This document shows positions 2,817 through 59,548 of a stretch of 64,000 bases of DNA, one piece after another (within the stretch, counting starts at the first letter, position 1; each line of letters opens with the position of its first letter). The stretch spans positions 4,946 to 68,945 of IMG/VR virus record IMGVR_UViG_3300020579_000012. One strand, given 5' to 3'. The translations under genes and the position numbers were made by a program. Under the pieces are notes generated by a model, which saw only the letters and a list, made by a program, of their open reading frames with translations, searched no databases and was not told the DNA's origin. This DNA comes from a virus.

Positions 2817-2838
2817 GCACTCTTTACCTCTTCTGTAC
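2817..2838 (-). promoter_or_regulatory. 22-bp dyad motif copy
   Basis: GTACAGAAGAGGTAAAGAGTGC, 4 nt before the lipoprotein ATG. Confidence 0.5.
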
Positions 2839-2843
2839 TAATC

Positions 2844-3131
2844 CTACTTTTCGAGAACCGCCAGGATTGCCCCTTCGATCAAGATCACATACTCCTGACC
2901 TTCGATCTTCACGTCTCCAATAAACTGCTCCGAGAAAAGGACCGTGTCCCCCTTCTTCACGCGAGGCTCAATCAGACGACCGGACTGAAACGCGCCTGGG
3001 CCGACGCCTTCCACGATACCACGATTCACCTTCTCCCGAGCCGCGTCAGGAATCAGAATGCCGCCGGGCGTCTTTTCGTCAGCCTTGAGTCTGCGGACAA
3101 CAATGTGGTCTGCCGTCGGGTTGATCTTCAT
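2844..3131 (-). CDS. groES: co-chaperonin GroES (Cpn10)
   Basis: Trimmed to ATG 3129-3131 (GGAGGA upstream). 95 aa: MKINPTADHIVVRRL..GGILIPDAAREKVNRGIVEGVGPG..GDTVLFSEQ..EYVILIEGAILAVLEK. Confidence 0.85.
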   Translation of the reverse strand: MKINPTADHIVVRRLKADEKTPGGILIPDAAREKVNRGIVEGVGPGAFQSGRLIEPRVKKGDTVLFSEQFIGDVKIEGQEYVILIEGAILAVLEK

Positions 3132-3171
3132 AAGTCCTCCTATATTGCCTCGCGCCAAAATAGCGCGTTTA

Positions 3172-3193
3172 GCACTCAACACCTTTTCTGTGC
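3172..3193 (-). promoter_or_regulatory. 22-bp dyad motif copy
   Basis: GCACAGAAAAGGTGTTGAGTGC, 40 nt upstream of the groES ATG. Confidence 0.55.
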
Positions 3194-3196
3194 CAA

Positions 3197-3844
3197 CTAC
3201 CAAGGAGGGGAGCCCCACCGGAACTCCATCCCCATAAGCATCACCTTCACGACGGACGGGCCCTTCAGGTTGACGAGTGGCATTTCCGCTTCGACGCGGA
3301 AGGACTCAGTCGAGTCCAGCTCGAGCGGCTCGCCTTTGTCGGAAACTACGCCCCTGGCATAGTGCGTCCAGATACCCTCCAGGTTGAACCTCTTCAGGCA
3401 GTCCCCGACCTGTTCGTTGAAGACGTTCCACTTGTTGACCTCGGTCTCGATCTTGTAAGCCTCGTCGATCGCGTGCATCGCCAGTCCATCGGTAACGTAC
3501 AGCACCGGAGAGAAGACCGACAGGGGACTCTCCTGCATTGTTACGTTGCCTCCGAAGATGAGCCGTAGCTTCAGATTTTTCAGGATCGTGAGAACATCGC
3601 TCTTGTCGTAGACCTGCTCGAGGGAGACGCCCCAGTAGTAGATCCGGAACGCCCTGGGAGTCCCGAGCATCCCGGAGCAGGTCATGTTCGTGTGAACTCC
3701 ACGCTCCTTCCACTCCCCATCGGGAAAGTGAAGGTTATCGAACAGGTTGACGCTCCCGTCTCCAAGCCCGTGCGACTTCAGTCGAAGCGTGTCGAAGAGG
3801 ACGTCTTTGTACCACTTCGCGTTGGGATGATAGTCTCTAGGCAT
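3197..3844 (-). CDS. beta-rich protein, paralog of the late-module protein 38992-39654 (capsid-like)
   Basis: Shares MLGTPRAFRIYYWG / SLGTPLSFDVFGYN, RLIFGGNVTM / QVVFGQDTTF and similar C-terminal strands with 38992-39654. Confidence 0.6.
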   Translation of the reverse strand: MPRDYHPNAKWYKDVLFDTLRLKSHGLGDGSVNLFDNLHFPDGEWKERGVHTNMTCSGMLGTPRAFRIYYWGVSLEQVYDKSDVLTILKNLKLRLIFGGNVTMQESPLSVFSPVLYVTDGLAMHAIDEAYKIETEVNKWNVFNEQVGDCLKRFNLEGIWTHYARGVVSDKGEPLELDSTESFRVEAEMPLVNLKGPSVVKVMLMGMEFRWGSPPW

Positions 3845-3862
3845 TCTTTACCTCTTCTGTGC
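3841..3862 (-). promoter_or_regulatory. 22-bp dyad motif copy
   Basis: GCACAGAAGAGGTAAAGAATGC; contains the ATG of 3197-3844. Confidence 0.5.
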
Positions 3863-4240
3863 CTACATCACTCTAGGCGGTTGAAGCATCTGCGTGTGGG
3901 CGAATCCGGGATATCTCCCGATTCGGGTCAATGATCTAGCCAGCTCAAACGCCTTTCTCGCTCTCTCGATCGCCGCCAATACTTCATCGCCAGTCGAGCA
4001 GATAACGAGCCTTGTCTCTGGAATGTGGGATCCGTCCAGTTCGCTCGCTACCTCTTCTTCGATCCTTCGCTTCAGATCGTCAGAAAGGTCTCCGGTCTCG
4101 ACCTTCTTAAATCTTCCCTGACCAGGAGCTTGACGACGAAAGTCCTGCTTTACGGGCTCGGTGAATCTGACGGCGAATACACCCGGCTTGTCGGTCGCCA
4201 GAATGGTTACGAACTCCAGATCTCTCATTTTATCCTCCAT
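3863..4240 (-). CDS. hypothetical protein (125 aa)
   Basis: Trimmed to ATG 4238-4240 (MEDKMRDLEF..). Confidence 0.55.
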   Translation of the reverse strand: MEDKMRDLEFVTILATDKPGVFAVRFTEPVKQDFRRQAPGQGRFKKVETGDLSDDLKRRIEEEVASELDGSHIPETRLVICSTGDEVLAAIERARKAFELARSLTRIGRYPGFAHTQMLQPPRVM

Positions 4241-4242
4241 TG

Positions 4243-4264
4243 GCACTCAATCTGCCTTTTGTGC
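4243..4264 (-). promoter_or_regulatory. 22-bp dyad motif copy
   Basis: GCACAAAAGGCAGATTGAGTGC, 2 nt before ATG 4240. Confidence 0.55.
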
Positions 4265-4414
4265 ATGACTACCGTTGGATCTGTGATTGCCGAATACCAT
4301 CTCGTGCGCCCAGTCGATGAAGAAACCGCCCGCTCTGTACCAACGGCGCTTCGCGTAGTCCAGCCAAGCGCGGTCGATAGCGTCGACCCATTCTTGCCGA
4401 CCCTCTGAAGTCAT
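4247..4414 (-). CDS. hypothetical protein (55 aa)
   Basis: Not in track. MTSEGRQEWVDAIDRAWLDYAKRRWYRAGGFFIDW..; ATGA overlap with the upstream gene. Confidence 0.4.
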   Translation of the reverse strand: MTSEGRQEWVDAIDRAWLDYAKRRWYRAGGFFIDWAHEMVFGNHRSNGSHAQKAD

Positions 4415-4608
4415 GAATCACGACTCCTTCTTGGCATCAGAGCAATAAATACGGATGGAAGGCCCATCAGAACTCCAAGTGCAAGAGCGTCGGGATTGTC
4501 CCGTACAGCGCCCTGGAGCCAAGTAAATAGAATCAAGCCGATCCCGATCCGCGCCAGAAGCGCGACGAGACAGCTTAGACCGAGCGGCTCTTCCGTATTC
4601 TCTTTCAC
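4411..4608 (-). CDS. small membrane protein (65 aa)
   Basis: Hydrophobic segments LSCLVALLARIGIGLILF and LGVLMGLPSVFIALM; GTG start with no clear SD. Confidence 0.5.
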   Translation of the reverse strand: MKENTEEPLGLSCLVALLARIGIGLILFTWLQGAVRDNPDALALGVLMGLPSVFIALMPRRSRDS

Positions 4609-4620
4609 GTTATAGCTATT

Positions 4621-4713
4621 TCAGCAATCGCAGCAGTAGCAGCAGCCTTCGCACCGCTCACAATGCTCCTCGGCCATCGCCCCGCACTCAGGACAAAGGA
4701 ATCGAATAATCAT
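4621..4713 (-). CDS. Cys-rich mini-protein (30 aa)
   Basis: Not in track. MIIRFLCPECGAMAEEHCERCEGCCYCCDC. Confidence 0.4.
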   Translation of the reverse strand: MIIRFLCPECGAMAEEHCERCEGCCYCCDC

Positions 4714-4726
4714 TGTGTTCTACCAT

Positions 4727-4748
4727 GCACTCAATTCGGCTTCTGTGC
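4727..4748 (-). promoter_or_regulatory. 22-bp dyad motif copy
   Basis: GCACAGAAGCCGAATTGAGTGC; spans the stop of 4731-4913. Confidence 0.55.
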
Positions 4749-4913
4749 CAACCCGTGTTTAGCGAGTAAGTGATCCTTAATGACCATAACGTCCAGAAAA
4801 TTCAACTCCTCACCGAGGAGGCCACGAGCCTCCATCCTTACTAAAATCGCACCGCAGACGGCACATCTGTAGCAGAACACACCGTCAACGAGGTCTTTAT
4901 TAATGGCTTCCAT
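4731..4913 (-). CDS. small zinc-ribbon-like protein (60 aa)
   Basis: Trimmed to ATG 4911-4913; contains ..FCYRCAVCGAIL.. Confidence 0.5.
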   Translation of the reverse strand: MEAINKDLVDGVFCYRCAVCGAILVRMEARGLLGEELNFLDVMVIKDHLLAKHGLAQKPN

Positions 4914-4923
4914 TTCTACAGTG

Positions 4924-4945
4924 GCACTCAATAGGTCTAGTGTGC
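4924..4945 (-). promoter_or_regulatory. 22-bp dyad motif copy
   Basis: GCACACTAGACCTATTGAGTGC; intergenic. Confidence 0.55.
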
Positions 4946-5119
4946 CTATCGCTTTCCGACCTTACTCTTCATGATTGAACCGAGAAGTTTCAGAGTTTCT
5001 TCAATTGTTGTTCGAACGGCTTCCTTCGACACGACGCGATCCTCATCGGTATCGTCGCACGTCCTGCTCTCAGTCCAGCTAACGATGAATCCACCATCTG
5101 CTGGTGAGACTCGAATCAT
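4946..5119 (-). CDS. hypothetical protein (57 aa; start uncertain)
   Basis: Trimmed to MIRVSPADGGF..; the upstream part of the track ORF overlaps the preceding gene. Confidence 0.4.
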   Translation of the reverse strand: MIRVSPADGGFIVSWTESRTCDDTDEDRVVSKEAVRTTIEETLKLLGSIMKSKVGKR

Positions 5120-5178
5120 GTTTGCAATGCGCAATGGATTTCTCCTAATGAAAAAAGTTCGCCTTCTCAAAATCACAG

Positions 5179-5634
5179 CTATCTCAACCACTGTCGAATT
5201 CCTAGATCTCGTTCCCACTCTACGGTCCACCTACCAAGCCTATCTGCCTCCGTTACAAGCAACTTCACGACTCGCTCAAGTTCAACCGCCATTGCATCGG
5301 CAGCTACCTGGGCAACTTTCGCACCCTTACCGTCACCACGCTTCTTACATCTGTTCGCGTCGTACTGAGCATTATTCCACTCGTTTTCAAGAGACAGGAA
5401 TAGACGCTCCAGAGATTCAAGGGAAACTTTCGGAGGGTTACTTAGACTTTTGGAGAGCCCCCTTCTAATCTCTGCGTATGTCCAAACGAGAGCCTTTGCG
5501 ATGGCTGCGTATGATTTTCTGGTGGCGTCGGCTATTTCAGGATACCGCGCAGACAAAAGCAGTCGATCTGCTGCATTGGAGAGCATTCTTGAGTAATGCC
5601 GGACATCGGAGTACAGGGATTTAGAGGTTCTCAT
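5179..5634 (-). CDS. hypothetical protein (151 aa)
   Basis: First ORF downstream of the sigma70-like promoter and leader at 5685-5793. Confidence 0.6.
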   Translation of the reverse strand: MRTSKSLYSDVRHYSRMLSNAADRLLLSARYPEIADATRKSYAAIAKALVWTYAEIRRGLSKSLSNPPKVSLESLERLFLSLENEWNNAQYDANRCKKRGDGKGAKVAQVAADAMAVELERVVKLLVTEADRLGRWTVEWERDLGIRQWLR

Positions 5635-5684
5635 AAAATTCTCAGAATCCTTCGAGCTGCGGCGAGTCCCATTGACGTGCTGAA

Positions 5685-5759
5685 CTGTCTAAGGTGCAGT
5701 ACGAGAGATAGGACGTCGCCGCAGTTCGTAAGACTCATATCGCACAGCACCTTAGACAG
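5685..5759 (-). other. long stem-loop at the 5' end of the predicted transcript (leader or small RNA)
   Basis: Perfect 13-nt arms CTGTCTAAGGTGC (5685-5697) and GCACCTTAGACAG (5747-5759) with a 49-nt loop; it begins about 5 nt after the -10 box. Confidence 0.5.
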
Positions 5760-5764
5760 CATTC

Positions 5765-5793
5765 AGTATAAGCACTGAACGTACCTCTGTCAA
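5765..5793 (-). promoter_or_regulatory. sigma70-type promoter TTGACA-17-TATACT
   Basis: On the minus strand: TTGACA (5793-5788), 17-nt spacer, TATACT (5770-5765). Confidence 0.65.
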
Positions 5794-5801
5794 GCTGTTC
5801 T

Positions 5802-5823
5802 GCACTCAACAATGCTTCTGTGC
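5802..5823 (-). promoter_or_regulatory. 22-bp dyad motif copy
   Basis: GCACAGAAGCATTGTTGAGTGC; 8 nt upstream of the TTGACA box of the 5765-5793 promoter. Confidence 0.55.
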
Positions 5824-6264
5824 TTACAGCCCGTCGTCCCAGACGCCACCCCACCGATCGCGACGATGACGTAGTTGAGCCTTGGTTATGCCTCTCCCTT
5901 TCTCGAGGAGCGTAACAGTTCCATGGGCCGGGATGCGAACGACCGCTGACGGCCATCCGGCCGTGAAGATCTCAAGACCGTCATCCATCGTCCGAACACC
6001 AAGCGCCAGGAGATCGATCGTCGACCCAATCGGACTCGTCTGCCGGAAGCTGTCACCGGCCTGGATTCTGTTTGGATGGTAATCCATCGGCAGGTAGCAC
6101 TCGCAGCTATTGATGGCGCATGAGCACTTCGCACGATCCTCGTACTCCCTCTGCGCCTTGATCTGGTCCGACAGGCGTAGGGCGGTCTCCTTACGCTTCG
6201 GCTCCTCCTGGAGGACATCCCGAACGAACGTCTCAAGATCTTCGTCGGTGATGAATCTGCTCAT
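5824..6264 (-). CDS. hypothetical protein (146 aa)
   Basis: GGGAGGGG SD before the ATG; ..CSCAINSCECY.. Confidence 0.6.
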   Translation of the reverse strand: MSRFITDEDLETFVRDVLQEEPKRKETALRLSDQIKAQREYEDRAKCSCAINSCECYLPMDYHPNRIQAGDSFRQTSPIGSTIDLLALGVRTMDDGLEIFTAGWPSAVVRIPAHGTVTLLEKGRGITKAQLRHRRDRWGGVWDDGL

Positions 6265-6277
6265 ATCCCCTCCCTAG

Positions 6278-6502
6278 CTACTTCCGGATCAGCAGGTAGA
6301 CGTCCCACTCGGCGCCAGCGCCGCCCTGTTCGCCGCCACAGCACATGGCGTCGGCCGCGATCCCGATGATCTCGCCACCGATCTTTCCGGCCTGGATCAG
6401 CGCGTTCGCCTTCGCCTCCTCGGCGCTCGCATGCGAGGTGCCGACCGCGACATCGTAGGTCCAGCGAGGCCACCAGAGCAGTTTCCTGAGCCACCAGAAC
6501 AT
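6278..6502 (-). CDS. hypothetical protein (74 aa)
   Basis: AGGAGG SD; MFWWLRKLLWWPRW.. Trp-rich N-terminus. Confidence 0.55.
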   Translation of the reverse strand: MFWWLRKLLWWPRWTYDVAVGTSHASAEEAKANALIQAGKIGGEIIGIAADAMCCGGEQGGAGAEWDVYLLIRK

Positions 6503-6514
6503 AGAGCCTCCTAT

Positions 6515-6919
6515 TTATAAATTACAGCAAAGATTCTTGCAGTCCGGCGGAGAGAATTCTCCGGTCGGCTTTCCGCGCGAAACCTCGACGTCGGTCCAAC
6601 GATGGAAAACTCGACATTCCGTGATGAGCCAGTGCTTGTGCTTATCGAGACCAATCCTCTTCCCGCACTCTAAGCAGACCGTCGATCCCGGAACACCCTG
6701 CTTGAAATAATGCCGTTCGCCTTTCTCAAGATGCTTTCTACATGGGTGACACTGATTCATCGTCTGTGGAACGTGCTCGGCAATGCGACCGGCTGCCTCC
6801 TCGCACCATGGGCATAGAAATGTTTCGATAGGACTCCAGGTGTGGTGTTTCCCGACGCACTCCACCATCGCGTAGGTGCCGTTCGTCTCGACGTAAAAGT
6901 CCCCGAGCTTGAATCTCAT
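6515..6919 (-). CDS. Cys/His-rich zinc-binding protein (134 aa)
   Basis: Several CxxC/CxxxH pairs (CPWCEE, CHPCRKH, CLECGK). Confidence 0.6.
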   Translation of the reverse strand: MRFKLGDFYVETNGTYAMVECVGKHHTWSPIETFLCPWCEEAAGRIAEHVPQTMNQCHPCRKHLEKGERHYFKQGVPGSTVCLECGKRIGLDKHKHWLITECRVFHRWTDVEVSRGKPTGEFSPPDCKNLCCNL

Positions 6920-7263
6920 GAAATCGGCTCTAGAAGGGTGATGACGCGGTATTTACCACGCTTCAGGCTCTCATTCCCCATAACCCCACGAAGCTGTATC
7001 CAATTGCTACCGAGCCTGAAATCACAGTTGAAGCTATTTGGGCTGTCACTGTACTCTTCGATCGTCCCGACAAGTACATTCGAATACCGATCGAATACCT
7101 TCTCTGGAACTTGCTTCGCGAGATTGACAAGTGATTGGATCTCTGACTGGCACTGCGATACTCTAACCTTCGCGTCGTCGGCTGCCTGCCGCGTCGACTT
7201 CACGACGGCCTCGAGATCCTTGACGCCCTGGGCGATGATCGCCTCGATGCTCTTCTGAAACAC
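6916..7263 (-). CDS. hypothetical protein (115 aa)
   Basis: Trimmed to GTG 7261-7263, which has GGAGGG 6 nt upstream. Confidence 0.55.
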   Translation of the reverse strand: MFQKSIEAIIAQGVKDLEAVVKSTRQAADDAKVRVSQCQSEIQSLVNLAKQVPEKVFDRYSNVLVGTIEEYSDSPNSFNCDFRLGSNWIQLRGVMGNESLKRGKYRVITLLEPIS

Positions 7264-7288
7264 GGTAACCCTCCTTCTTCTTCTCCAA

Positions 7289-7310
7289 GCACACTTCGAG
7301 CTTTCTGTGC
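7289..7310 (-). promoter_or_regulatory. 22-bp dyad motif copy
   Basis: GCACAGAAAGCTCGAAGTGTGC; intergenic. Confidence 0.55.
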
Positions 7311-7313
7311 AGG

Positions 7314-7541
7314 CTACTTCTTCTCCATCCAGGCCGACAGCTCTGTCACGCAATCCCCACAAAGGTCCTTCCGTTGGAAGGATACCTCGCCCTCCCGGAC
7401 GAGCGGCGCCAGGATCGAAGCTCCACGCTTCACGGACGAGTCCAACGGATCTGGCTTCTCAAGGGCCTTGCTCTCGGCGAACTCCTTAAGACATCTGTCA
7501 CAGTCGTACTTCGTGACCCGGCCGAGCTGCCGACTGCTCAT
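7314..7541 (-). CDS. zinc-ribbon protein (75 aa)
   Basis: CDRC...CGDC. Confidence 0.55.
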   Translation of the reverse strand: MSSRQLGRVTKYDCDRCLKEFAESKALEKPDPLDSSVKRGASILAPLVREGEVSFQRKDLCGDCVTELSAWMEKK

Positions 7542-7882
7542 CGGTTCCTCCTCTCGATTCCTCGCCGGACGCGCTTCGCCTCGCGCTCGGCGCCGCGCTC
7601 CGTGTAAGGGCCAGTAATCTTTGTCGCCTCGAGATGCTTATCGAGGACAATCACGGAGAAGTAGCGAGGCTCCTTAAAGCGACAGGAACCATGCTTCCGC
7701 TCATCGTGCGGACAGACCAGCGGAACGACGACGACCGCGGCCGACTTGATCGCGGCCCGCATAAGCGGATCCCGGCGTTTCGTCTTCTGGAAACAACTAC
7801 GACATATCGGACCGAGCTTCTCGTTCTCAACGAGCAGAAGACACTCGCAGGAAAAGCAATAGGACTCCTCGACTTTTTTCAT
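7538..7882 (-). CDS. Cys-rich protein (114 aa)
   Basis: Trimmed to ATG 7880-7882 (ATGA overlap with the integrase stop); CFSCEC..CRSCF. Confidence 0.55.
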   Translation of the reverse strand: MKKVEESYCFSCECLLLVENEKLGPICRSCFQKTKRRDPLMRAAIKSAAVVVVPLVCPHDERKHGSCRFKEPRYFSVIVLDKHLEATKITGPYTERGAEREAKRVRRGIERRNR

Positions 7883-8664
7883 CTCCGAAGCTTCTCGAAA
7901 GTGTTTACGACCTTCTCTTCCCTTGTATGAACGTAGATCTTCGCCAACTCGATCGAAGACCAACGAAGTTGAGACCTAACGTAGTTAAAGTCAGCTCCAG
8001 CAGCGATTAGCCTACTGGCACGGGTATGTCGAAGGATATGGATCAGACCAAATCGGTCTGGCTTTACGATATCTAAAATCCTTTCGAAGATGCTCTGAAG
8101 CGTCCTCTTTGGAATCTTAAAAAGTAGATCATTCGGACCAAACTGCTTCACCCATGTACGCAACTCGTTCGTAAAATCGCTCTTATTGTCAAGATCGACT
8201 GGTAGAAGAGGGTGCCCTGACTTCTTAAGAGTTGGAATCCAAAGGCTCGAAAATGGACCTTTCTTCCAGTCGACGTATTTCGTACGCATTAGCAATGCTT
8301 CGCCACAGCGGCATCCAGTTTCAAGGATAAATCTGATCGTAATTCCAGCCGGATTCTCAATCTTCTTTGTTTCAGCAAGAACCTCCTTGTACTCCTCGTC
8401 GCTAAGATATTTAGTTGAGTCGATTACCGCGTTCGACGACGAAAGAGTTGAGCCCTTCGAATACTTCGATCTACAGCAACCTTCTAAGCATGTGATGAAC
8501 TTGTCACGACGCCCAGCAGACTTCATTATTTTCTGTTTACAGACGTGATTTGGTGATGTGCAGACCTTCGCTCGATCTCCGATATTGTACCGGGCCATGA
8601 ATGATTTCCCACAAATGAAGCAGGTCGAAGGAATCCGGTACTCTGACTTTTCCTTTTTTTTCAT
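7879..8664 (-). CDS. tyrosine recombinase / phage integrase family, with an N-terminal Cys-rich region
   Basis: TGCRCGEALLMR (Arg box), HILRHTRAS (HxxR), LRWSSIELAKIYVHT (catalytic Tyr). Confidence 0.85.
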   Translation of the reverse strand: MKKKEKSEYRIPSTCFICGKSFMARYNIGDRAKVCTSPNHVCKQKIMKSAGRRDKFITCLEGCCRSKYSKGSTLSSSNAVIDSTKYLSDEEYKEVLAETKKIENPAGITIRFILETGCRCGEALLMRTKYVDWKKGPFSSLWIPTLKKSGHPLLPVDLDNKSDFTNELRTWVKQFGPNDLLFKIPKRTLQSIFERILDIVKPDRFGLIHILRHTRASRLIAAGADFNYVRSQLRWSSIELAKIYVHTREEKVVNTFEKLRR

Positions 8665-9314
8665 TTTTTGTGCTCTCGAACGTAGAAGCCGTAATCCTGT
8701 CGCTTCCCGTCGATGTAGGCAAGCTTTGCACAGGCAAGATTGACACAGTAGTTAAAGGAGACTTGATCTCGCTTCGATCCTGACGAAATCTCATCCCACC
8801 AGAGCTCGTTGAAGCGTCGGACCGTATCGTTGTGCCTCCGGATTAGGATATTCGTCTCTCCTAAACCTGCCGCTGCTGGGTATCCGGCCTTTCTTAGTTT
8901 TGTCAAATGATTGACCATCACCAACGGATCTTCCTTCCCTGCGAGAACCGCCGCATTGCCGCCGATATAAACGCAGTCGATTGTCTGGTGACGAAAGAGC
9001 GCAATGTCGTTGTCCGATGTGTACTTCTCAACGAGCGCGCGCAGATCTACGTCGACAGCGTCGATCGCACCGTCTATCCAAACAACGAGTCGATAGTCTT
9101 GTACTGGACTGGCGTGGGACATGACCTTATATAGCCTCGCGTTGCGCGTCAAATCCTTGAGTACAGTCGGAAGGATAACCACCTTCGCCCGGCTCGGCAC
9201 CCTCTTTGGGTAGGAATCCGTAAGAAAAAATACGTCGATATCTTCCCCGAATTCCGGCTCGACGTACGGATCATAATCTCCAAAAATCCCAGTGTACACG
9301 GCAATTTTTTCCAT
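8661..9314 (-). CDS. DUF616-type glycosyltransferase-like protein
   Basis: IAVYTGIFGDYD..VFFLTD..VVWIDGAI..SKRDQVSFNY matches the DUF616 layout as I remember it. Confidence 0.7.
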   Translation of the reverse strand: MEKIAVYTGIFGDYDPYVEPEFGEDIDVFFLTDSYPKRVPSRAKVVILPTVLKDLTRNARLYKVMSHASPVQDYRLVVWIDGAIDAVDVDLRALVEKYTSDNDIALFRHQTIDCVYIGGNAAVLAGKEDPLVMVNHLTKLRKAGYPAAAGLGETNILIRRHNDTVRRFNELWWDEISSGSKRDQVSFNYCVNLACAKLAYIDGKRQDYGFYVREHKK

Positions 9315-9316
9315 GA

Positions 9317-9865: not shown

Positions 9866-9913
9866 GTTCTTTCCCCTTCTTCAACTGGGATTATACCTTC
9901 AAACCCTAAATCT

Positions 9914-9935
9914 GCACACTATATTTCTACTGTGC
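9914..9935 (-). promoter_or_regulatory. 22-bp dyad motif copy
   Basis: GCACAGTAGAAATATAGTGTGC; a TATAAT lies 23 nt downstream; upstream of the methyltransferase gene. Confidence 0.55.
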
Positions 9936-10247: not shown

Positions 10248-10253
10248 CGTAAA

Positions 10254-10691: not shown

Positions 10692-10711
10692 TTATCCTCC
10701 TTCTTACTAAT

Positions 10712-10733
10712 GCACAGATCCTACCTTCGGTGC
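10712..10733 (-). promoter_or_regulatory. 22-bp dyad motif copy (degenerate)
   Basis: GCACCGAAGGTAGGATCTGTGC; upstream of the deoxyribosyltransferase-like gene. Confidence 0.4.
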
Positions 10734-10828: not shown

Positions 10829-10830
10829 GG

Positions 10831-12037: not shown

Positions 12038-12058
12038 ATACGGTTCTCCAGGTAGCTC

Positions 12059-12625: not shown

Positions 12626-12841
12626 TCAATACCTCCTCCGCGTCATCGGTGCCTCGGCCTTCTTCGTACACACGAAGCAGTATTCAACGGAAATGAACTT
12701 CACCATCGTCTCTGTAAAGGTCGGCACCAGAAACCTAAAGCCCGTAATTCCCTTCGCCTTCAGGCCGTAGTCGCAGGAAGAGTTAATGGTCGCTATCGCT
12801 TTCAACTCTACTCCGCAGCCATCGCACTTCGTAATCTGCAT
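12626..12841 (-). CDS. zinc-ribbon protein (71 aa)
   Basis: Trimmed to ATG 12839-12841 (MQITKCDGCGVEL..CFVCTKK). Confidence 0.5.
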   Translation of the reverse strand: MQITKCDGCGVELKAIATINSSCDYGLKAKGITGFRFLVPTFTETMVKFISVEYCFVCTKKAEAPMTRRRY

Positions 12842-12858
12842 CTTTACCTCTTCTGTGC
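12838..12858 (-). promoter_or_regulatory. dyad motif copy (21 bp)
   Basis: GCACAGAAGAGGTAAAGATGC; contains ATG 12841. Confidence 0.45.
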
Positions 12859-13586: not shown

Positions 13587-13608
13587 GCACTCATCTTTAC
13601 TTCTATGC
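13587..13608 (-). promoter_or_regulatory. 22-bp dyad motif copy
   Basis: GCATAGAAGTAAAGATGAGTGC; intergenic, followed by TTATATT. Confidence 0.5.
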
Positions 13609-15449: not shown

Positions 15450-15471
15450 GCACTGAATCGTAGTACTGTGC
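15450..15471 (-). promoter_or_regulatory. 22-bp dyad motif copy
   Basis: GCACAGTACTACGATTCAGTGC; 3 nt before ATG 15446. Confidence 0.55.
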
Positions 15472-56139: not shown

Positions 56140-56538
56140 GTGACCAGAGTCGAAGTCCTCTTCGATCTCATCCGGACACAGGCGTCGCTCCGGTTCCCCT
56201 GGATCGCCCAGGTCAAGGTGAAGTTCTGTCCGATGGCCGACCGGGATCACGGGATGAAATGGCGCCAGTTCGCCCATACAAATCATCGCGTGTACACGGT
56301 CTGTTTCGCGAAGGCGGCCGAGATCGAACTCTTCGACGAGGAGGTCCTCGGGATGTCGGCGCACGAGCTGGGGCATATCGTCGGGAAGCGTCTTCGATAC
56401 CCGGAGCACTCGCGGCCGACGACGACGAAGAGGACCCCCAAGGCCGTCCAGGACGAGGCCGACAGGATCGCCCAGGAGGTCCTTGGGTTCGACGGCCTTC
56501 ACTACAACCACCGGACGCTCCAGGAGCTTAGAGGATAG
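56140..56538 (+). CDS. small HEXXH metallopeptidase-like protein
   Basis: ..GMSAHELGHIVGK.. Confidence 0.6.
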   Translation: MTRVEVLFDLIRTQASLRFPWIAQVKVKFCPMADRDHGMKWRQFAHTNHRVYTVCFAKAAEIELFDEEVLGMSAHELGHIVGKRLRYPEHSRPTTTKRTPKAVQDEADRIAQEVLGFDGLHYNHRTLQELRG

Positions 56539-56755
56539 TCTCCTCCGGCGTGTCCGGCAACGTGAAGGCGACCGTCATCTGGAACTCATAGATCAGCCGT
56601 TTGGCCGCGTCAATCGAGACGAGCTTCCAATAAAACGGGTCTCCGCGCTCGTCCCGGAACTGCAGGCAGGCGACGATCTCGTCGTCGGAGATCTGGATCC
56701 TGAGCGGACAATTGGAGCCCTTGATCGCATAGACCTTCAAGCGCCCAACCCCCAC
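56528..56755 (-). CDS. hypothetical protein (75 aa)
   Basis: ORF track; its 3' end converges on and overlaps gene 56140-56538 by 11 nt. Confidence 0.5.
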   Translation of the reverse strand: MGVGRLKVYAIKGSNCPLRIQISDDEIVACLQFRDERGDPFYWKLVSIDAAKRLIYEFQMTVAFTLPDTPEETIL

Positions 56756-56790
56756 CCGGTCGCGCCTGCTATTTTATACGATCTCCAGGT

Positions 56791-57030
56791 CTAGCGCCAG
56801 ATGCAGCGGCACCAGTCATGCTCGCCCTGATGATGGTTGCAGAGCCCGTAGATCTCCACCTTGCAGACGACGCACTTCTTGCAGTCCGAGCTCGAGACGG
56901 CGTTCCTCGCGATCGAGTACCTTCTCAGGATGGAGAATCTTGAGCGCGTCACGGTGAAAAGGGCCGCCAGCATGAACATTCCAAAGGATACCCCGAACGT
57001 CGCCTTCCAGTGGACCAGGATGCTCGTCAT
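56791..57030 (-). CDS. membrane plus Cys-rich protein (79 aa)
   Basis: TM segment FGVSFGMFMLAALFTV; CKKCVVCK..CNHH. Confidence 0.5.
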   Translation of the reverse strand: MTSILVHWKATFGVSFGMFMLAALFTVTRSRFSILRRYSIARNAVSSSDCKKCVVCKVEIYGLCNHHQGEHDWCRCIWR

Positions 57031-57051
57031 GGCTCTCTCTCCTGCAGTACG

Positions 57052-57073
57052 GCACTTTATAACAGTTCTGTGC
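57052..57073 (-). promoter_or_regulatory. 22-bp dyad motif copy
   Basis: GCACAGAACTGTTATAAAGTGC; intergenic. Confidence 0.55.
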
Positions 57074-57075
57074 AG

Positions 57076-57261
57076 CTACCCGGAACGGACCTTGTTCTTG
57101 TGGGACTTGAGCTCCTGCTTTGTCCTGTTCTGTCGACCGTGCCGTCCATGGTCCTTCGAGCTGCTTTGAGCCTTGTAGTCCCTATCCAACCTCTCGCAGA
57201 GATCGTCGCAGAAACGTCGATCGCCCAGGATTACTTCTCCGCACCAGAAGCAGGTTTTCAT
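57076..57261 (-). CDS. zinc-ribbon protein with basic tail (61 aa)
   Basis: CFWCGE..FCDDLCE. Confidence 0.5.
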   Translation of the reverse strand: MKTCFWCGEVILGDRRFCDDLCERLDRDYKAQSSSKDHGRHGRQNRTKQELKSHKNKVRSG

Positions 57262-57276
57262 GTATTATTTTACACA

Positions 57277-57292
57277 AAGAAGATTACAGGGA
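57277..57292 (-). promoter_or_regulatory. CCCT(A)GTAATCTTCT motif copy
   Basis: Minus strand: TCCCTGTAATCTTCTTT, 19 nt before ATG 57261. Confidence 0.4.
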
Positions 57293-57466
57293 GAGAGGCT
57301 TTCGCCCATGGATCTTCTTAAAGAGATCCTCGTACACCTTCCTTGCCTTCGGTCCGCTGACGAAGCACTTACCGCCGCCAGCTATGAACCCTCGACGCCC
57401 CTTCTTCCTTGGGGCGAGAAGTGAAAGGCTCACGTAGTACGCCTTGTCTCGATGCGCCTTGTCCAT
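57284..57466 (-). CDS. small basic protein (60 aa)
   Basis: Trimmed to ATG 57464-57466. Confidence 0.45.
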   Translation of the reverse strand: MDKAHRDKAYYVSLSLLAPRKKGRRGFIAGGGKCFVSGPKARKVYEDLFKKIHGRKPLSL

Positions 57467-57474
57467 GAAACCCC

Positions 57475-57717
57475 CTAATAGAGGTCTTCGCTCATCAGAA
57501 CAGTATAGAGCTTCGGAACCTGCCCAGCCTCGAACGCCACCTTTGCTGCTTCCTTCCTGTCTAAGAACTTTCCGCATTCGGTGACGAATCCCTGGGTCCC
57601 CCTGACCGGGGCGGCCTTGCGACCGAGCTCGTCGATGATTTTTTGAATCACGTCGTGGTGCCTACGGCCGGTCCAGACGACGCCACCGTGTATGATGGCG
57701 GCCTCTTTGATCCTCAT
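57475..57717 (-). CDS. hypothetical protein (80 aa)
   Basis: AAIIHGGVVWTGRRHHDVI..GFVTECGKFLDRKEAAKVAFEAGQ: a pattern I have seen in uncharacterised phage proteins. Confidence 0.55.
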   Translation of the reverse strand: MRIKEAAIIHGGVVWTGRRHHDVIQKIIDELGRKAAPVRGTQGFVTECGKFLDRKEAAKVAFEAGQVPKLYTVLMSEDLY

Positions 57718-57728
57718 TTATCTTCCGC

Positions 57729-57746
57729 AGAGAAGATTACGTAGGG
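57729..57746 (-). promoter_or_regulatory. CCCTACGTAATCTTCT motif copy
   Basis: Minus strand: CCCTACGTAATCTTCTC, 16 nt before ATG 57717. Confidence 0.45.
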
Positions 57747-57747
57747 A

Positions 57748-58014
57748 TTAACATCTCTCAGCGTTCTCGTGAAGCACGCTCCTTGATGAGAATTCGTCAT
57801 TTTTCATCGCCGTGAAGTGCTCCTTATTCACCCAGTACAGCTTTTGGTCAGCCTCGCAAATCACGAGCAGGTAGGTCTTATGTGAGAACCACGTATCCTT
57901 GACCCAGACGCCAAGAGCCCGGACTGGAGCGTCGGTGATCGGAGCGGCCTCAAGATCATCGAAGTTGATCCTGAATACATTGCCCTTGATCGGTTCCTGA
58001 AACATCGAGACCAT
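57748..58014 (-). CDS. hypothetical protein (88 aa)
   Basis: ORF track. Confidence 0.5.
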   Translation of the reverse strand: MVSMFQEPIKGNVFRINFDDLEAAPITDAPVRALGVWVKDTWFSHKTYLLVICEADQKLYWVNKEHFTAMKNDEFSSRSVLHENAERC

Positions 58015-58024
58015 ATTCTCTCCT

Positions 58025-58042
58025 GAGAAGATTACGTAGGGA
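58025..58042 (-). promoter_or_regulatory. CCCTACGTAATCTTCT motif copy
   Basis: Minus strand: TCCCTACGTAATCTTCTC, 14 nt before ATG 58014; 17 of 17 nt identical to the 57729 copy. Confidence 0.45.
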
Positions 58043-58253
58043 GACTCCCCATAAACTTCCTGGCGTCCTCTAGCGTATGGAGCCTATGAAGCTCTCCACT
58101 TAGAGGATGCTCGACCTCTACCACAATTGAGTTCCAAGCGAGCGTCCTATCTGATCCGATGCGGTCGCCTTCGGCTTTATATTTGAATTGAAGTCCAGCC
58201 GCATGTAGCAGGCTCGCTATGGTGACCGCAACCTCATCAGCATCCATAATCAT
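58032..58253 (-). CDS. hypothetical protein (73 aa)
   Basis: ORF track. Confidence 0.5.
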   Translation of the reverse strand: MIMDADEVAVTIASLLHAAGLQFKYKAEGDRIGSDRTLAWNSIVVEVEHPLSGELHRLHTLEDARKFMGSLPT

Positions 58254-58474
58254 AATCTTATTCCGAACCGTCTTGCGTACTCGTCTTTGAGCGCCGAAAG
58301 GCGGTCCTCTGCGATCTTAATCTCCGTCTCCAGTCGCGACTTATTGATTCGACCTTGGACCCGATAGCACTCAGGATTTCCACAAAGAATCCACTTCGCA
58401 TAATACGGCTTCGCGTGGTCAGGCTCGTATTCGAACCTGCAGCCACAGTCCATCGGGATCTCAACGATCGCCAT
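58250..58474 (-). CDS. hypothetical protein (74 aa)
   Basis: ORF track; ATGA overlap. Confidence 0.5.
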   Translation of the reverse strand: MAIVEIPMDCGCRFEYEPDHAKPYYAKWILCGNPECYRVQGRINKSRLETEIKIAEDRLSALKDEYARRFGIRL

Positions 58475-58713
58475 TAGTATCCACGTTCTTTCAGGTGCTT
58501 ATCGACGGCATTGCTTACGGTATCAAGTAGCACCTTTCGGCAAGATTCGCATACCTCCGTATGCTTATTGAAGGTCTTTGCTTCTCTACTTGTGATTTTA
58601 GCACCAACCATCTTGAACAATTTCTTTTTGAACTGCTCGCAGGTCATAATCTTCTTCCACAATGAAACCGGGTTTATCGGGCCTTTCCCCGGTAAGCGGG
58701 TTCCAACTGGCAC
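58474..58713 (-). CDS. anti-sigma zf-HC2-like small protein (start may be ATG 58645-58647)
   Basis: MTCEQFKKKLFKMVGAKITSREAKTFNKHTEVCESCRKVL follows the C..x..H..x3..C..x2..C pattern of putative-zinc-finger anti-sigma factors. Confidence 0.45.
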   Translation of the reverse strand: MPVGTRLPGKGPINPVSLWKKIMTCEQFKKKLFKMVGAKITSREAKTFNKHTEVCESCRKVLLDTVSNAVDKHLKERGY

Positions 58714-58733
58714 CCAACCCGCGATAGCCTTTC

Positions 58734-59246
58734 TTATTTAGCCGTCACCTCTTCTGCGGCCCGCCAGTCCGCTTCCCTATCGCCAAGCCGCCGATCCATC
58801 CTCTGGCACGTTTCCGGCTCAAGGTGGGCGTCATTCACGATCCGGAAGTAAAACTCGTTCCACCACTCTCTGATAGTTTGATCGGGATGTTTGTATCCCA
58901 GAATCTCAGCAGCGTGCATCAGGTGCAGTTGGAAGTGATGCGGGAGTTCGTCTACCGAGCGAAAATACTCATTGGCGTATGAGTCTAGCTGATCGTATCC
59001 ACTCAACCCAGATCCATCCGGCGGCCTTGGTATCGGGCCCGTAAAGGACCCCCCTCCCGGAGTTAGGGGGTCCAATAGAGCCTTCTTATCGAACGCTGAT
59101 ACCAAGAATGAGCGCCGGAGCCATCGACAGAGAACCTTGACGGGATGATCCTTCTTGATACCGTCTGGGCCTCGAACGGAGGCGATCAAAACAGACTGCT
59201 GCATCATCGGAAGCTCGTGAACCCAGGGCTGTAAAACGGATGGCAT
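58734..59246 (-). CDS. hypothetical protein (170 aa)
   Basis: ORF track; AAAGGAGAGAG SD. Confidence 0.6.
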   Translation of the reverse strand: MPSVLQPWVHELPMMQQSVLIASVRGPDGIKKDHPVKVLCRWLRRSFLVSAFDKKALLDPLTPGGGSFTGPIPRPPDGSGLSGYDQLDSYANEYFRSVDELPHHFQLHLMHAAEILGYKHPDQTIREWWNEFYFRIVNDAHLEPETCQRMDRRLGDREADWRAAEEVTAK

Positions 59247-59270
59247 AGCTCTCTCCTTTATCTTCTTCCA

Positions 59271-59285
59271 CTAAGATTACTTAGG
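59271..59285 (-). promoter_or_regulatory. CCTAAGTAATCTT motif copy (degenerate)
   Basis: Minus strand: CCTAAGTAATCTTAG, 27 nt before ATG 59246. Confidence 0.3.
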
Positions 59286-59484
59286 CGACCTTCTGGCCGA
59301 CCACTTCATAGTCTACTGAGAGGCCGCAATTGTGAAGGAGGCCCCGGATCACCTCTCCGTTTTTGATTTCGTCCGTCTTGGAGAAATCGACCATGGTCAG
59401 CTTTCGCTGGAACGCGAAGACGTGGACCTTGGTAGAGTCGAGCATCACAACCTTGCCGCAGTGAAGGCATTTCGCGTTCATCAT
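59281..59484 (-). CDS. hypothetical protein (67 aa)
   Basis: ORF track; AGGAGAGG SD. Confidence 0.5.
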   Translation of the reverse strand: MMNAKCLHCGKVVMLDSTKVHVFAFQRKLTMVDFSKTDEIKNGEVIRGLLHNCGLSVDYEVVGQKVA

Positions 59485-59526
59485 CCTCTCCTATAATCTT
59501 CCCGTTGTACGATTATATACACTACG

Positions 59527-59548
59527 GCACAGAATTTAGCTAGTGTGC
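59527..59548 (-). promoter_or_regulatory. 22-bp dyad motif copy (fits in both orientations)
   Basis: GCACACTAGCTAAATTCTGTGC on the minus strand, followed 9 nt later by TATAAT. Confidence 0.5.

Follow-up and report, generated by a model that had tools for sequence, protein, structure and literature searches.

A 22-bp sequence repeated along the early arms of this phage is a genuine, strongly conserved signal at the boundaries of small early genes in a novel family of soil phages, where it constitutes a gene-junction element. Among the functions considered, we favour an operator- or "stoperator"-like protein-binding site that would double as a recombination linker, with a probability of about 0.4. 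The window referred to below is the whole stretch of 64,000 nucleotides that was analysed.

A search of the 64-kb window with the pattern GCACAGAAG-N5-TTGAGTGC returned 12 matches at three mismatches or fewer, 11 of them on the minus strand, against 0.07 expected from 100 dinucleotide shuffles of the window. A weight matrix made from 67 non-redundant sites scored above 12 bits at 14 places (0.06 in shuffles), and inclusion of weaker copies and of one with a 1-nt deletion brought the total to 16. An earlier note on this DNA had estimated about 16 copies; this count holds, and the dyad ends GGCAC...GTGCC it described are real, a G preceding the 22-mer in 48 and a C following it in 49 of the 67 non-redundant sites. 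About 16 of the 22 positions are nearly invariant, and these include positions that cannot pair (A5/A18, G6/G17), which implies sequence-specific recognition and not a bare hairpin. Every copy in the window lies at a gene boundary in the minus-strand early arms, and no sites were found in the late arm. The copies are as follows.

1097..1118, plus strand: near-palindromic inverted copy GCACAGTAGTTCCATAGTATGC, 14.8 bits, with its best reading against the direction of the neighbouring genes; it stands 2 nt ahead of a minus-strand gene's start codon (ATG at 1094) and follows a terminator-like hairpin
2817..2838, minus strand: junction copy, variant C' GTACAGAAGAGGTAAAGAGTGC, 27.4 bits
3172..3193, minus strand: junction copy, variant D GCACAGAAAAGGTGTTGAGTGC, 32.4 bits, upstream of a GroES-like gene
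3841..3862, minus strand: junction copy, variant C, 33.4 bits, whose spacer GAGGT is a Shine-Dalgarno sequence (SD)
4243..4264, minus strand: junction copy, variant A, 32.4 bits, whose built-in TGA (positions 16-18) ends the upstream ORF
4727..4748, minus strand: junction copy, variant B, the exact consensus, 35.9 bits; the upstream ORF (...AQKPN*) terminates at its built-in TGA
4924..4945, minus strand: junction copy, variant E, centre GACCTA, 33.3 bits
5802..5823, minus strand: promoter-flanking copy, 8 nt upstream of a -35 box, site centre at about -54.5
7289..7310, minus strand: weak copy GCACAGAAAGCTCGAAGTGTGC, 13.5 bits, before a conserved gene for a 115-aa "anchor" protein
9914..9935, minus strand: near-palindromic copy, variant F, with TATAAT 18 nt later, site centre at about -41.5
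10712..10733, minus strand: low-scoring copy GCACCGAAGGTAGGATCTGTGC of more palindromic form, followed by an SD and ATG
12838..12858, minus strand: copy of variant C that has lost 1 nt, GCACAGAAGAGGTAAAG-ATGC
13587..13608, minus strand: copy GCATAGAAGTAAAGATGAGTGC, 21.4 bits, with TATATT 1 nt later
15450..15471, minus strand: copy GCACAGTACTACGATTCAGTGC, with an ortholog in lineage L133 at 1184
57052..57073, minus strand: copy in the second minus-strand arm, 21.2 bits, before an SD and ATG
59527..59548, minus strand: near-palindromic copy with TATAAT 9 nt later, overlapping the promoter core

All asymmetric copies are co-oriented with transcription. The earlier note had placed one copy on the plus strand before a late glycosyltransferase; an opposite-strand copy does exist, but it is that at 1097-1118, whose inverted orientation is kept in its L133 ortholog (at 18025), and not that at 59527. 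The latter is near-palindromic, its ortholog in L135 (18957) clearly reads in gene sense (27.6 bits, TATAAT 8 nt downstream) and gene-calling programs put a gene on the minus strand at 59553-60056 beside it, so that no plus-strand copy before a late glycosyltransferase remains. The motif had rightly been said to contain the ATG at 3841 (positions 19-21 of the motif, 3844-3842, opening a 215-aa gene also called in an identical contig) and at 12838 (12841-12839, beginning the ORF MQITKCDGCG). At 4243, the proposed distance of 2-4 nt between motif and start should probably be revised, the likely start being the second ATG, behind GGAGG.

Some copies lie near predicted promoters, the strongest of which is given here.

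5765..5793, minus strand: sigma70-type promoter TTGACA-17-TATACT, 11 of 12 consensus matches

It is the only 11/12 match between 1 and 16.5 kb and, judging from sequence, probably drives the operon with the E,B,A,C,D,C' array; sigma70 promoter calls are consensus matches only. The abutment of the 5802 copy on the -35 box of a canonical promoter, reported previously, was verified (8 nt), and copy and promoter are conserved together in L133. Further, an inverted copy in L145 (13909) sits 9 nt from TTGACT-17-TATACT, variant F stands 15-18 nt ahead of a -10 hexamer in four lineages (18 nt in L132 and L133, as in the window; 15 nt to TATAGT in L135) and 59527-type copies precede TATAAT by 8-9 nt in two. 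Sites of both orientations are found overlapping the few sigma70-type promoters or next to them, some of these copies being palindromic or inverted, and most sites of the window have neither a sigma70 promoter nor a terminator stem-loop.

Gaps between accessory early genes measure only about 20-40 nt. Site-by-site mapping placed the stop of the upstream gene at -6 to -1 relative to the motif, or inside it at positions 7, 13 or 16; the overlap with stop codons seen in several copies by the earlier note is therefore systematic. The start codon of the following gene is at position 19 of the motif or 11-16 nt past it (positions 33-38), which argues strongly against a promoter firing from the 3' end of the motif. 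In 17 of the 23 sites with a start at position 19, the spacer is a correctly spaced SD (Fisher p = 1.3e-7), and the presence of SD and start codon inside the motif makes it part of the translated message.

Four proteins of the window were considered in relation to the sites.

6916..7263, minus strand: conserved 115-aa anchor protein
7879..8664, minus strand: Xer/IntI-like tyrosine recombinase with a Cys-rich N-terminus (Pfam Phage_integrase 1e-12; PHROG integrase 5e-21; best solved relatives in PDB IntI4, 2.6e-5, and XerH, 7.5e-5)
61197..61556, minus strand: 119-aa ORF with a sub-threshold PadR-like match, conserved in L135 and overlapping neighbouring ORFs
62501..62803, minus strand: 100-aa protein with a LacI-type HTH headpiece and hinge and no effector domain

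The recombinase is a candidate partner of the sites: its orthologs adjoin arrays in eight lineages, and it was not seen in the 11-17 kb examined of the array-bearing L076, L138 and L147. In every lineage examined the anchor gene is found upstream of the array, directly so in several; in the window four genes lie between them. The predicted model of the anchor protein (pLDDT 80) had no significant fold match. Of the two regulators nominated by the earlier note, the protein at 62501-62803 carries a genuine LacI-type DNA-binding headpiece and is, from its sequence, a candidate regulator, but nothing ties it to the motif. LacI-family operators are conserved near the centre and not at the outer ends, which counts against the operator reading as far as this protein is concerned. 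For the ORF at 61197-61556, the sub-threshold PadR match is what supports the winged-helix assignment. No binding protein for the 22-mer and no homolog of two-domain stoperator repressors was identified, no RNA-binding protein or RNase was recognised in the phage, and the genome of about 69 kb, including the 4.9 kb outside the window, contains no recognisable RNA polymerase or sigma factor, nor homologs of the ECF-type sigma genes of two related lineages, L141 and L149. Several large proteins of the phage have no detectable homologs.

The motif is kept in relatives: at least 15 lineages of uncultivated phages of about 65-73 kb carry it, including lineages found through the anchor protein independently of the motif (L138, L140, L141, L142 and L147). 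The anchor protein of L140 is only 32% identical, yet the motif is present, and a perfect palindrome GCACAGAA-N6-TTCTGTGC is seen in that lineage. The centres fall into five discrete types, matched exactly by 70 sites against 4 that are one base off, and their order E,B,A,C,D(,G) is the same across all lineages although the intervening genes are unrelated; in variants C, D and G the centre is accounted for by an SD plus a stop codon. L149 has almost no copies. A sister lineage (L150-type) uses a different 7-6-7 palindrome with the same junction layout (23 copies in 17.8 kb against 2 expected), which, from sequence comparison, has the look of co-evolving protein-site pairs.

Homology between phages often stops exactly at the 22-mer; it is one-sided, and the break falls at the motif or within it. 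Up to one such site the sequences of L076 and L001 share about 98% identity and are unrelated 1-3 nt beyond it, the homology between the window and L133 breaks near motif position 14 of sites whose centres differ, and L148 harbours a window-type E-gene-B unit inserted between foreign junction motifs. Some other recent exchanges were joined at ribosome-binding sites instead, and gene families also change slots without flanking sites, with homology beginning at the ATG. Conservation in relatives, ordered variants, the built-in stop/SD/start design and recombination breakpoints were absent from the earlier note.

Under the favoured operator/stoperator reading, the 22-mer would be the DNA recognition site of a phage-specified, sequence-specific protein that would act in two kinds of place, much as L5-type phages have it. 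One is the sigma70-type promoters of the early arms, which a few near-palindromic or inverted copies overlap or adjoin. The other is nearly every boundary of the small, fast-changing accessory genes inside those operons, where asymmetric copies stand and the bound protein could stop or dampen read-through. Protein binding, binding to DNA and an effect on transcription are what we infer here. The putative operator of a phage-encoded regulator, suggested previously, remains the best-supported reading, in view of the sites flanking promoters in either orientation, the retention of the inverted 1097 copy in L133, the sister palindrome and the lack of compensated arm changes. The regulator had also been called dimeric, which is half right as to the dyad, but asymmetry is consistent among the copies of the array, with GCACAG as the left half and a right half that reads GCACTC, and a simple homodimer does not explain it. 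Also against an operator, five exactly conserved centres (70 versus 4) would be unexpected if the centre were free, the late arm is devoid of sites, unlike the situation for L5 stoperators, and the coupling of stops and starts fits an RNA-level role equally well. Such a role, which we regard as unlikely, would make the 22-mer an element of the polycistronic early mRNA, either the target of an RNA-binding protein or nuclease (a RegA/RegB-like operator or processing site) or a coupling hairpin, a weak one beside the next ribosome-binding site being opened by a ribosome terminating at the adjacent stop. It would agree with the asymmetric copies all lying on the sense strand, with the fixed stop and start positions and with the SD falling in the "loop" where the start is at position 19; the outer GGCAC/GUGCC stem is present in 74 of 88 minimum-energy folds, at a mean of -6.1 kcal/mol versus -2.5 for shuffles. 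The nearest published analogue by position, the start-associated sequence (SAS) of Cluster K mycobacteriophages, was proposed to have a role in translation initiation (PMC3203893). However, compensatory changes are absent from both motif types (none in the window type, where one-sided changes are about half wobble and half breaking; 0 against 65 one-sided in the L150 type), the most conserved inner bases are unable to pair, variant C sacrifices the stem for its ATG in 12 copies, and the hairpin of variants A, B and E covers neither SD nor start. The inverted or palindromic promoter copies conserved among lineages would go unrecognised in sense RNA, an Rfam search gave no family match, and the phage is without a recognised RNA-binding protein or RNase.

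Selected recombination sites, an explanation that we hold to be quite improbable, would be 8-6-8 sites in a set order and incompatible with one another ("heterospecific"). Either the Xer/IntI-like recombinase or short-homology recombination would act on them. Cassettes could in this way be traded in register between co-infecting relatives, while the differing centres would prevent deletions between sites within a genome. The imperfect inverted arms around a 6-bp centre, the discrete centre types in constant order between unrelated genes, the one-sided homology breaks (L076/L001, window/L133), the L148 unit and the recombinase gene near the array in eight lineages, with its IntI4 and XerH relatives, all point that way. 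Against it stand the joints at ribosome-binding sites, the relocation of gene families without sites, the array-bearing L076, L138 and L147 with no recombinase in the 11-17 kb examined, and the C, D and G centres explained by SD and stop codon; the window and L133 differ in their centres, so an identical overlap was not needed for that exchange. Conserved regulatory motifs are also known to serve incidentally as crossover points, PeSLs being an example (PMC2839356). A phage-specific promoter class, perhaps with leaderless or short-leader mRNAs, had been offered by the earlier note; it would be read by a polymerase or sigma factor that the phage specifies. It would suit a long, information-rich, directional motif ahead of many early genes, the ECF-type sigma genes of L141 and L149 and the large proteins devoid of homologs, but it is already largely refuted and retains very little probability: SD (17 sites) and start (23 sites) lie inside the motif, upstream ORFs end inside it, its conserved blocks are about 13 bp apart and fit neither -35/-10 nor -24/-12 spacing (sigma54 had been correctly rejected), no polymerase or L141/L149-type sigma is recognisable either in the window or in the remaining 4.9 kb of the genome, and sigma-bearing L149 is almost motif-free.

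Tyrosine-recombinase cassette systems include integron attC arrays, pdif modules and engineered heterospecific lox sites. As in integron-type arrays, a single promoter in the window precedes a series of small genes that have no promoters of their own, an imperfect palindrome delimits each gene, a tyrosine recombinase gene is nearby and gene content varies among relatives; sites differing in their centres would be incompatible with one another, like heterospecific lox sites. In integrons, however, each cassette carries its site along and no order is maintained; in these phages the sites hold their order and it is the genes that change. The attC sites are 57-141 bp long and recognised by structure. 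Recombination at the phage sites is putative, and some joints lie outside them.

A comparable class of repeats is already known in phages, namely stoperators, SAS/ESAS, Cluster O repeats and PeSLs. The operators and stoperators of Cluster A mycobacteriophages, bound by L5 gp71-type repressors, occur in tens of copies at promoters and in short intergenic gaps of operons (PMC9283540). The window motif resembles them in sequence layout, by its many copies of one short conserved sequence, its dual placement and its asymmetric copies oriented with transcription, any binding and elongation block being putative here; it differs by its 22 bp with dyad ends (13 bp and fully asymmetric in stoperators), its confinement to the early arms (both arms in stoperators), its built-in stop, SD and start codons and its five ordered centres (PMC9283540). 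The SAS/ESAS of Cluster K mycobacteriophages (PMC3203893) are likewise repeats that are asymmetric but have symmetric outer bases. Some copies contain an SD core. They stand within a few bases of start codons and at times take in the upstream stop, and they are found beside non-structural genes of differing families only, in a single orientation with one or two inverted copies per genome; the left inverted repeat of ESAS is better conserved than the right. Their sequence (GGGATAGGAGCCC) is unrelated and of another length, their host phylum probably differs, and ordered variants and repeat-located breakpoints, as seen here, were not found for them in the passages of that source consulted. The 17-bp dyad TGTTCGGNNNCCGAACA of Cluster O mycobacteriophages (more than 30 copies) is also dispersed; its arms do not vary but its centre does. 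Many of its copies are intergenic or at gene 5' ends, positions are conserved across related genomes, and it most resembles the L150-type palindrome; unlike the window motif, it is fully symmetric, without orientation bias, genome-wide including inside genes, and not described with stops or starts (PMC4351075). T4-type PeSLs similarly punctuate hyperplastic regions of small non-essential early genes with short conserved motifs whose recombination shuffles genes among related phages, but each combines a sigma70 promoter and a terminator stem-loop (PMC2839356, PMC4122927).

Returning to the operator/stoperator-like site, the short intergenic gaps would be the reason why it is built into the junction itself, where it gives the upstream gene in-frame stop codons and, in some variants, the next gene its ribosome-binding site and start codon. 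Sequence comparisons indicate that the 22-mer marks the points where related phages swap genes. Being the sole sequence common to otherwise unrelated genes, it would be where these phages cross over, and genes would consequently be exchanged slot by slot with the order of site variants kept.

At no more than 3 mismatches, the pattern GCACAGAAG-N5-TTGAGTGC of the 22-bp junction repeat matched 12 times in the window against 0.07 expected, 11 of the 12 matches being on the minus strand, and a weight matrix based on 67 non-redundant sites retained 14 places above 12 bits, compared with 0.06 in shuffled sequences. The enrichment over a shuffled background that the earlier note had proposed as a check was thus obtained, and its count of about 16 copies corresponded to these 14 places plus a weaker copy at 10712 and a copy one nucleotide shorter at 12838. 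All copies were situated at gene boundaries of the early arms, and the plus-strand block (29.3-56.5 kb) contained none that scored more than 12 bits in the weight-matrix scan. The extended consensus was wG-GCACAG[A/t]AG-NNNNA-[T/A][T/A]GAGTGC-C, with an 8-6-8 layout of inverted arms around a 6-bp centre (GCACAGAA / GNNNNA / TTGAGTGC). Copies at gene junctions were asymmetric, the left half being GCACAG and the right half reading GCACTC, with an A at position 18, and such copies were always co-oriented with transcription in the window and in its relatives. A minority of copies were palindromic (GCACAG...CTGTGC) or inverted, and these adjoined sigma70-type elements. A perfect palindrome, GCACAGAA-N6-TTCTGTGC, was found in the related locus L140, and the inverted orientation of the copy at 1097 was kept in another relative, L133. 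The assignment of the 59527 copy to the plus strand could not be maintained, since this copy is near-palindromic, its ortholog lies in gene-sense orientation and gene callers place an adjoining gene on the minus strand.

The anatomy of the junctions was analyzed on 88 non-redundant sites, 86 of which had an assignable upstream ORF. The stop codon of this ORF began at -3 (12 sites) or at motif position 7 (9), 13 (18) or 16 (15); these four positions share a single frame of the motif, in which TAG, TAA/TGA and TGA codons are built in, and the remaining stops were mostly located 4-6 nt before the motif. The GGTAG frequently seen upstream of the motif was also considered as an RfaH/ops-like element, a reading that was discarded as its TAG is the stop codon of the upstream gene, selected owing to the conserved G that precedes the motif. 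In 23 sites the downstream ORF started at motif position 19, and in 27 others, with a Shine-Dalgarno sequence (SD) of its own, at positions 33-38 (11-16 nt past the motif), the start being more distant where the gap contained a promoter. For starts at position 19, the N5 spacer was GAGGT or AAGGTG, which is a correctly spaced SD, and such a spacer was present in 17 of these 23 sites versus 8 of 63 others (p = 1.3e-7). Owing to these positions of stop codons, SD and start codons, the motif is part of the translated message.

Genes of the window were on the minus strand at 1-28,881 and 56,528-64,000, with a plus-strand block in between, and the two minus-strand arms run on into each other across the window ends. 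Megablast of 40 kb against 50,697 GenBank phage records revealed no close relative. Because a public metagenome contig of 68,831 bp was 100% identical to the window across 11,127 nt, the window represents 64 kb of a phage genome of about 69 kb. Both ends of this contig break inside a 15-bp tandem array, of which at least 26 near-identical copies occupy 63612-64000 and extend past the right edge, continuing in L145 (a contig carrying sequence outside the window) at about 15825-16037. This array is coding and its minus (sense) frame specifies a pentapeptide-repeat protein whose repeats are unusually uniform, which ruled out a non-coding iteron or binding array. Pentapeptide-repeat proteins can be DNA mimics and act on gyrase.

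The early arms consisted of about 89% ORF by longest-ORF calls. Minus-strand genes encoded a D5-type primase/helicase, a DEAD_2 helicase, glycosyltransferases, a methyltransferase, a GroES-like protein, two HNH endonucleases and a 261-aa tyrosine recombinase, the last being the only feature that suggests a temperate lifestyle. Most structural proteins of the window had no match in PHROG, and no tRNA gene was found in the window; in L133, a tRNA-like 3' end (GGTTCGATTCC...CCA) lies at about 9330-9420, between an F-type site and a methyltransferase gene. Glycosyltransferase and sugar-modifying genes occurred in both arms (17151-21177 and 50707-52035) as well as in the related loci L142, L147, L148 and L149, suggesting modification of DNA or of surface glycans. 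Many of the small early proteins encoded on the minus strand at 4000-15000 contained paired CxxC motifs and were zinc-ribbon-like. Two small genes of this arm were as follows.

2844-3131, minus strand: GroES-like co-chaperonin (Cpn10; E 1.6e-22), within the motif-punctuated array
7314-7541, minus strand: 75-aa zinc-ribbon-like protein, adjoining the gene of the conserved anchor protein and kept in nearly all lineages

Some copies of the motif were associated with promoter elements. The copy at 5802 lies 8 nt upstream of TTGACA-17-TATACT, the sole 11/12 sigma70 match in 1-16.5 kb, and an inverted copy just beyond the window lies 9 nt upstream of TTGACT-17-TATACT. Among near-palindromic copies, variant F was followed by a -10 hexamer 15-18 nt downstream in four lineages, and the 59527 type by TATAAT 8-9 nt downstream in two lineages. 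Matches resembling intrinsic terminators were at chance level in 1-16.5 kb; the hairpin given here was among the few convincing ones of the early arm.

1165-1200, minus strand: terminator-like hairpin GTCGACG...CTCGAC followed by TCTTTGATTTTATT, upstream of the site at 1097

The earlier note had also envisaged a phage-specific promoter class. This reading is strongly disfavoured, and we consider it highly improbable, because the motif lies within translated message (SD and start codon inside it, upstream ORFs ending inside it), because neither the window nor the other 4.9 kb of the genome contained a recognisable RNA polymerase or sigma factor gene, and because the spacing of the conserved blocks matches neither -35/-10 nor -24/-12 elements. 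A T7-like or other phage polymerase was sought among the large proteins: the 803-aa protein is the D5-type primase/helicase, and the others were helicase, glycosyltransferases or proteins without matches. The GG and GC elements of sigma54 promoters are exactly 10 bp apart (TGGCAC-N5-TTGCW), whereas in the motif GCAC is followed by 10 bases up to TTGA and 14 up to GTGC, about half a turn off, and the dismissal of sigma54 in the earlier note was therefore right. A sigma factor as reader of the motif was likewise rejected, since the ECF-type genes of two related lineages have no homolog in the window genome.

L141, 18492-18811: ECF-type sigma factor gene (Sigma70_r2/r4_2)
L149, 15600-16085: ECF-type sigma factor gene (Sigma70_r2/r4_2)

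In L149, this sigma gene is present and the 22-bp motif is nearly absent.

Viral and metagenome collections scanned for the exact pattern yielded contigs with 2-8 motif copies each. Such a sample is motif-biased, and relatives were therefore also gathered through their proteins. Queries with single proteins yielded few or none, so alignments were used instead: the recombinase search led to four contigs, and the 115-aa anchor protein (6916-7263), which adjoins the arrays, had 63 homologs and was the source of the lineages obtained independently of the motif. A 64-aa protein (10831-11025) also belongs to the conserved early proteins. Among these, the motif was present in L138, L140 (whose anchor protein is only 32% identical), L141, L142 and L147, reduced to one weak copy in L149, and absent from L150. 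Conservation in relatives, another check set out beforehand, therefore held in five lineages found independently of the motif. A motif scan of 185,579 genomes could not designate a host, as single matches occurred in about the number expected by chance. The only host hint, too weak for a name, was L051 (JBGPNZ010000020.1), a 15.7-kb phage-like contig with two exact copies that was binned with a Nitrospiraceae MAG. The short metagenome contigs L082 and L121 stop 1-22 nt from a motif copy, a pattern that populations polymorphic on one side of the motif would be expected to produce.

A second motif type was found in a sister phage group. L150 carried TAGGT-AATCTTC-N6-GAAGAT[T/A] in 23 copies over 17.8 kb (1-17781; about 2 expected), and L148 combined about 25 copies of this type (5596-18742) with two window-type sites. 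Like the window motif, it was situated at gene boundaries and followed the same rules: the upstream stop directly precedes the motif or falls within it, the centre provides an SD, and the next gene starts at the right arm or directly behind it, here as A(A)ATG. That a sister lineage keeps this layout with another sequence is what co-evolving protein-site pairs would look like. Its arms vary and thereby allow a cleaner test: 65 changes were one-sided, 48 in the downstream arm versus 17 in the upstream arm, and none was compensated (0 among 67 changes). Such a pattern fits two half-sites that would be read independently on DNA, the downstream half being relaxed by overlapping translation signals, and does not fit an RNA stem.

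The best-supported reading, to which we assign a probability of roughly 0.4, is that a phage-specified protein recognises the motif as its DNA site. The site would be built into the gene junction and would be used at promoters and cistron boundaries, in the manner of the L5 operator and stoperators; as a side effect, it may act as a crossover point for gene exchange, as do the PeSLs of T4-type phages. Its main rival is an operator or coupling element acting at the RNA level, for which the tight stop/start geometry can be invoked and which we regard as unlikely. A GGCAC/GUGCC stem did form in 74 of 88 folds; the best-conserved inner bases are unable to pair, one-sided changes that break a pair were about as frequent as those leaving a wobble, and there were no compensated pairs. 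With covariation absent from both motif types and no Rfam family matching the motif, an RNA hairpin was rejected, and the conservation of inverted copies also speaks against action at the RNA level.

The centres of the motif also had to be accounted for. In 21 lineages, the centres of sites scoring more than 16 bits matched one of five types exactly in 70 cases and were one mismatch off in only 4.

Motif types and their centres
Type A: GGCAGA
Type B: GCCGAA
Type C: GAGGTA
Type D: AAGGTG
Type E: GACCTA
Type G: AGGCTG

Wherever a lineage had several types, they followed a single order along transcription, E, B, A, C, D (then G). Genes behind sites of the same type almost never clustered together, and one gene family may fill different slots. 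SD and stop codon explain the centres of types C, D and G; those of types A, B and E have no such explanation. Only a selected function in recombination accounts directly for type-specific centres and their kept order, and the 8-6-8 layout corresponds to the inverted arms around a 6-8 bp centre of tyrosine recombinase core sites. Across loci, one-sided homology was found in 9 of 3,576 site pairs and two-sided homology in 0, and the break fell at or within the motif in 6 of the 9. L076 and L001, two related loci, showed about 98% identity along the 150 nt leading to the site, and from 1-3 nt beyond it they were unrelated. The window and L133 were near-identical downstream and unrelated upstream, with a break at about position 14 and different centres, and in L148 a window-type E-gene-B unit was found between two L150-type motifs. 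However, a recently moved gene (88% nucleotide identity) was bounded by SD sequences, not by the motif, and in another gene family homology began at the ATG. The motif is thus not the sole joint. These joints at ribosome-binding sites and start codons, together with the break joining different centres, weaken the case for a selected recombination function, which we regard as quite unlikely. Its most specific form, a natural cassette-exchange system of ordered, mutually incompatible sites (8-bp arms, 6-bp type-specific centre) that would be read by the conserved Xer/IntI-like recombinase, is a long shot. If true, early accessory genes could be exchanged between co-infecting phages one slot at a time, with no loss of a phage's own genes, and phages would have their own equivalent of integrons or of engineered heterospecific lox sites, with site families differing by lineage.

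Returning to a DNA site read by a phage-specified protein, the helix-turn-helix product of 62501-62803 (100 aa), proposed earlier as a possible regulator, proved to have a LacI-type headpiece and hinge and no effector domain. It aligned with residues 3-64 of PDB 3dbi, one homolog carries PF00356, JGI names its homologs LacI/PurR, and its best 35 Foldseek matches were all LacI-family headpieces. It is a candidate DNA-binding reader of the motif. LacI-family operators are palindromes of about 16-20 bp in which conservation peaks near a central CG step. By contrast, the motif has a variable centre and best-conserved outer ends, a central CG occurs only in variant B, and its conservation profile differs from that of typical LacI-family operators. 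The winged-helix protein also proposed (61197-61556, 119 aa) gave a PadR match, at sub-threshold level only. The anchor protein was not retained as a regulator, since its confident model (pLDDT 80) had no significant fold match. Among solved structures, the recombinase (7879-8664, minus strand) came nearest to IntI4 and XerH, whose E-values differed too little for a subfamily assignment. It was present in 8 array-bearing lineages and not seen in the 11-17 kb covered of three others. Its N-terminal region of about 80 aa is Cys-rich and zinc-finger-like where a core-binding domain is usual, the Cys being invariant in 5 orthologs.

Dispersed boundary repeats are known in several phage groups (stoperators, SAS/ESAS, Cluster O repeats, PeSLs), most of them without known function. 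In L5, operator and stoperator sites are found at promoters and cistron boundaries (PMC9283540), where a phage repressor that binds them blocks initiation and elongation. The motif resembles them in being a short site in many copies (16 in the window) at junctions and promoters, with asymmetric copies oriented along transcription. It differs in its dyad-symmetric ends and its few palindromic or inverted copies, and, unlike stoperators, which occupy both the early and the late arms of a temperate phage, it is missing from the plus-strand block at the 12-bit level. The published elements that come closest in position and behaviour are the Cluster K SAS/ESAS and the Cluster O repeat. The Cluster K elements (PMC3203893), of unknown function, have the consensus GGGATAGGAGCCC and lie 3-7 bp before start codons; the motif differs in sequence, is similar in position (start at 19 or 11-16 nt past the motif), and is analogous to SAS, not a member. 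The Cluster O repeat is a 17-bp dyad of unknown function (PMC4351075). In T4-type phages, recombination between PeSLs swaps neighbouring genes (PMC2839356). One-sided homology breaking at the motif (6 of 9 pairs) and the cassette insertion in L148 are reminiscent of PeSLs, which consist of a sigma70 promoter and a terminator stem-loop, whereas the early arm had only one strong promoter match and terminators at chance level. The motif shares no sequence with any of these elements; it is an element of this kind that belongs to no named family, and the phage that carries it represents a new phage family.

What is added here is a deeply novel family of uncultivated phages in which the repeat works as a full adaptor between genes, providing stop, ribosome-binding site and start. 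Across lineages whose proteins are only 30-75% identical, the five centre variants are preserved in sequence and in rank order, although the genes lying between them are completely replaced. In a sister lineage another palindrome serves the same design, and cassettes of one type can sit in arrays of the other. These phages offer a concrete system for testing the regulation and exchange of fast-evolving early genes, and comparison of lineages may reveal the protein that reads the site.
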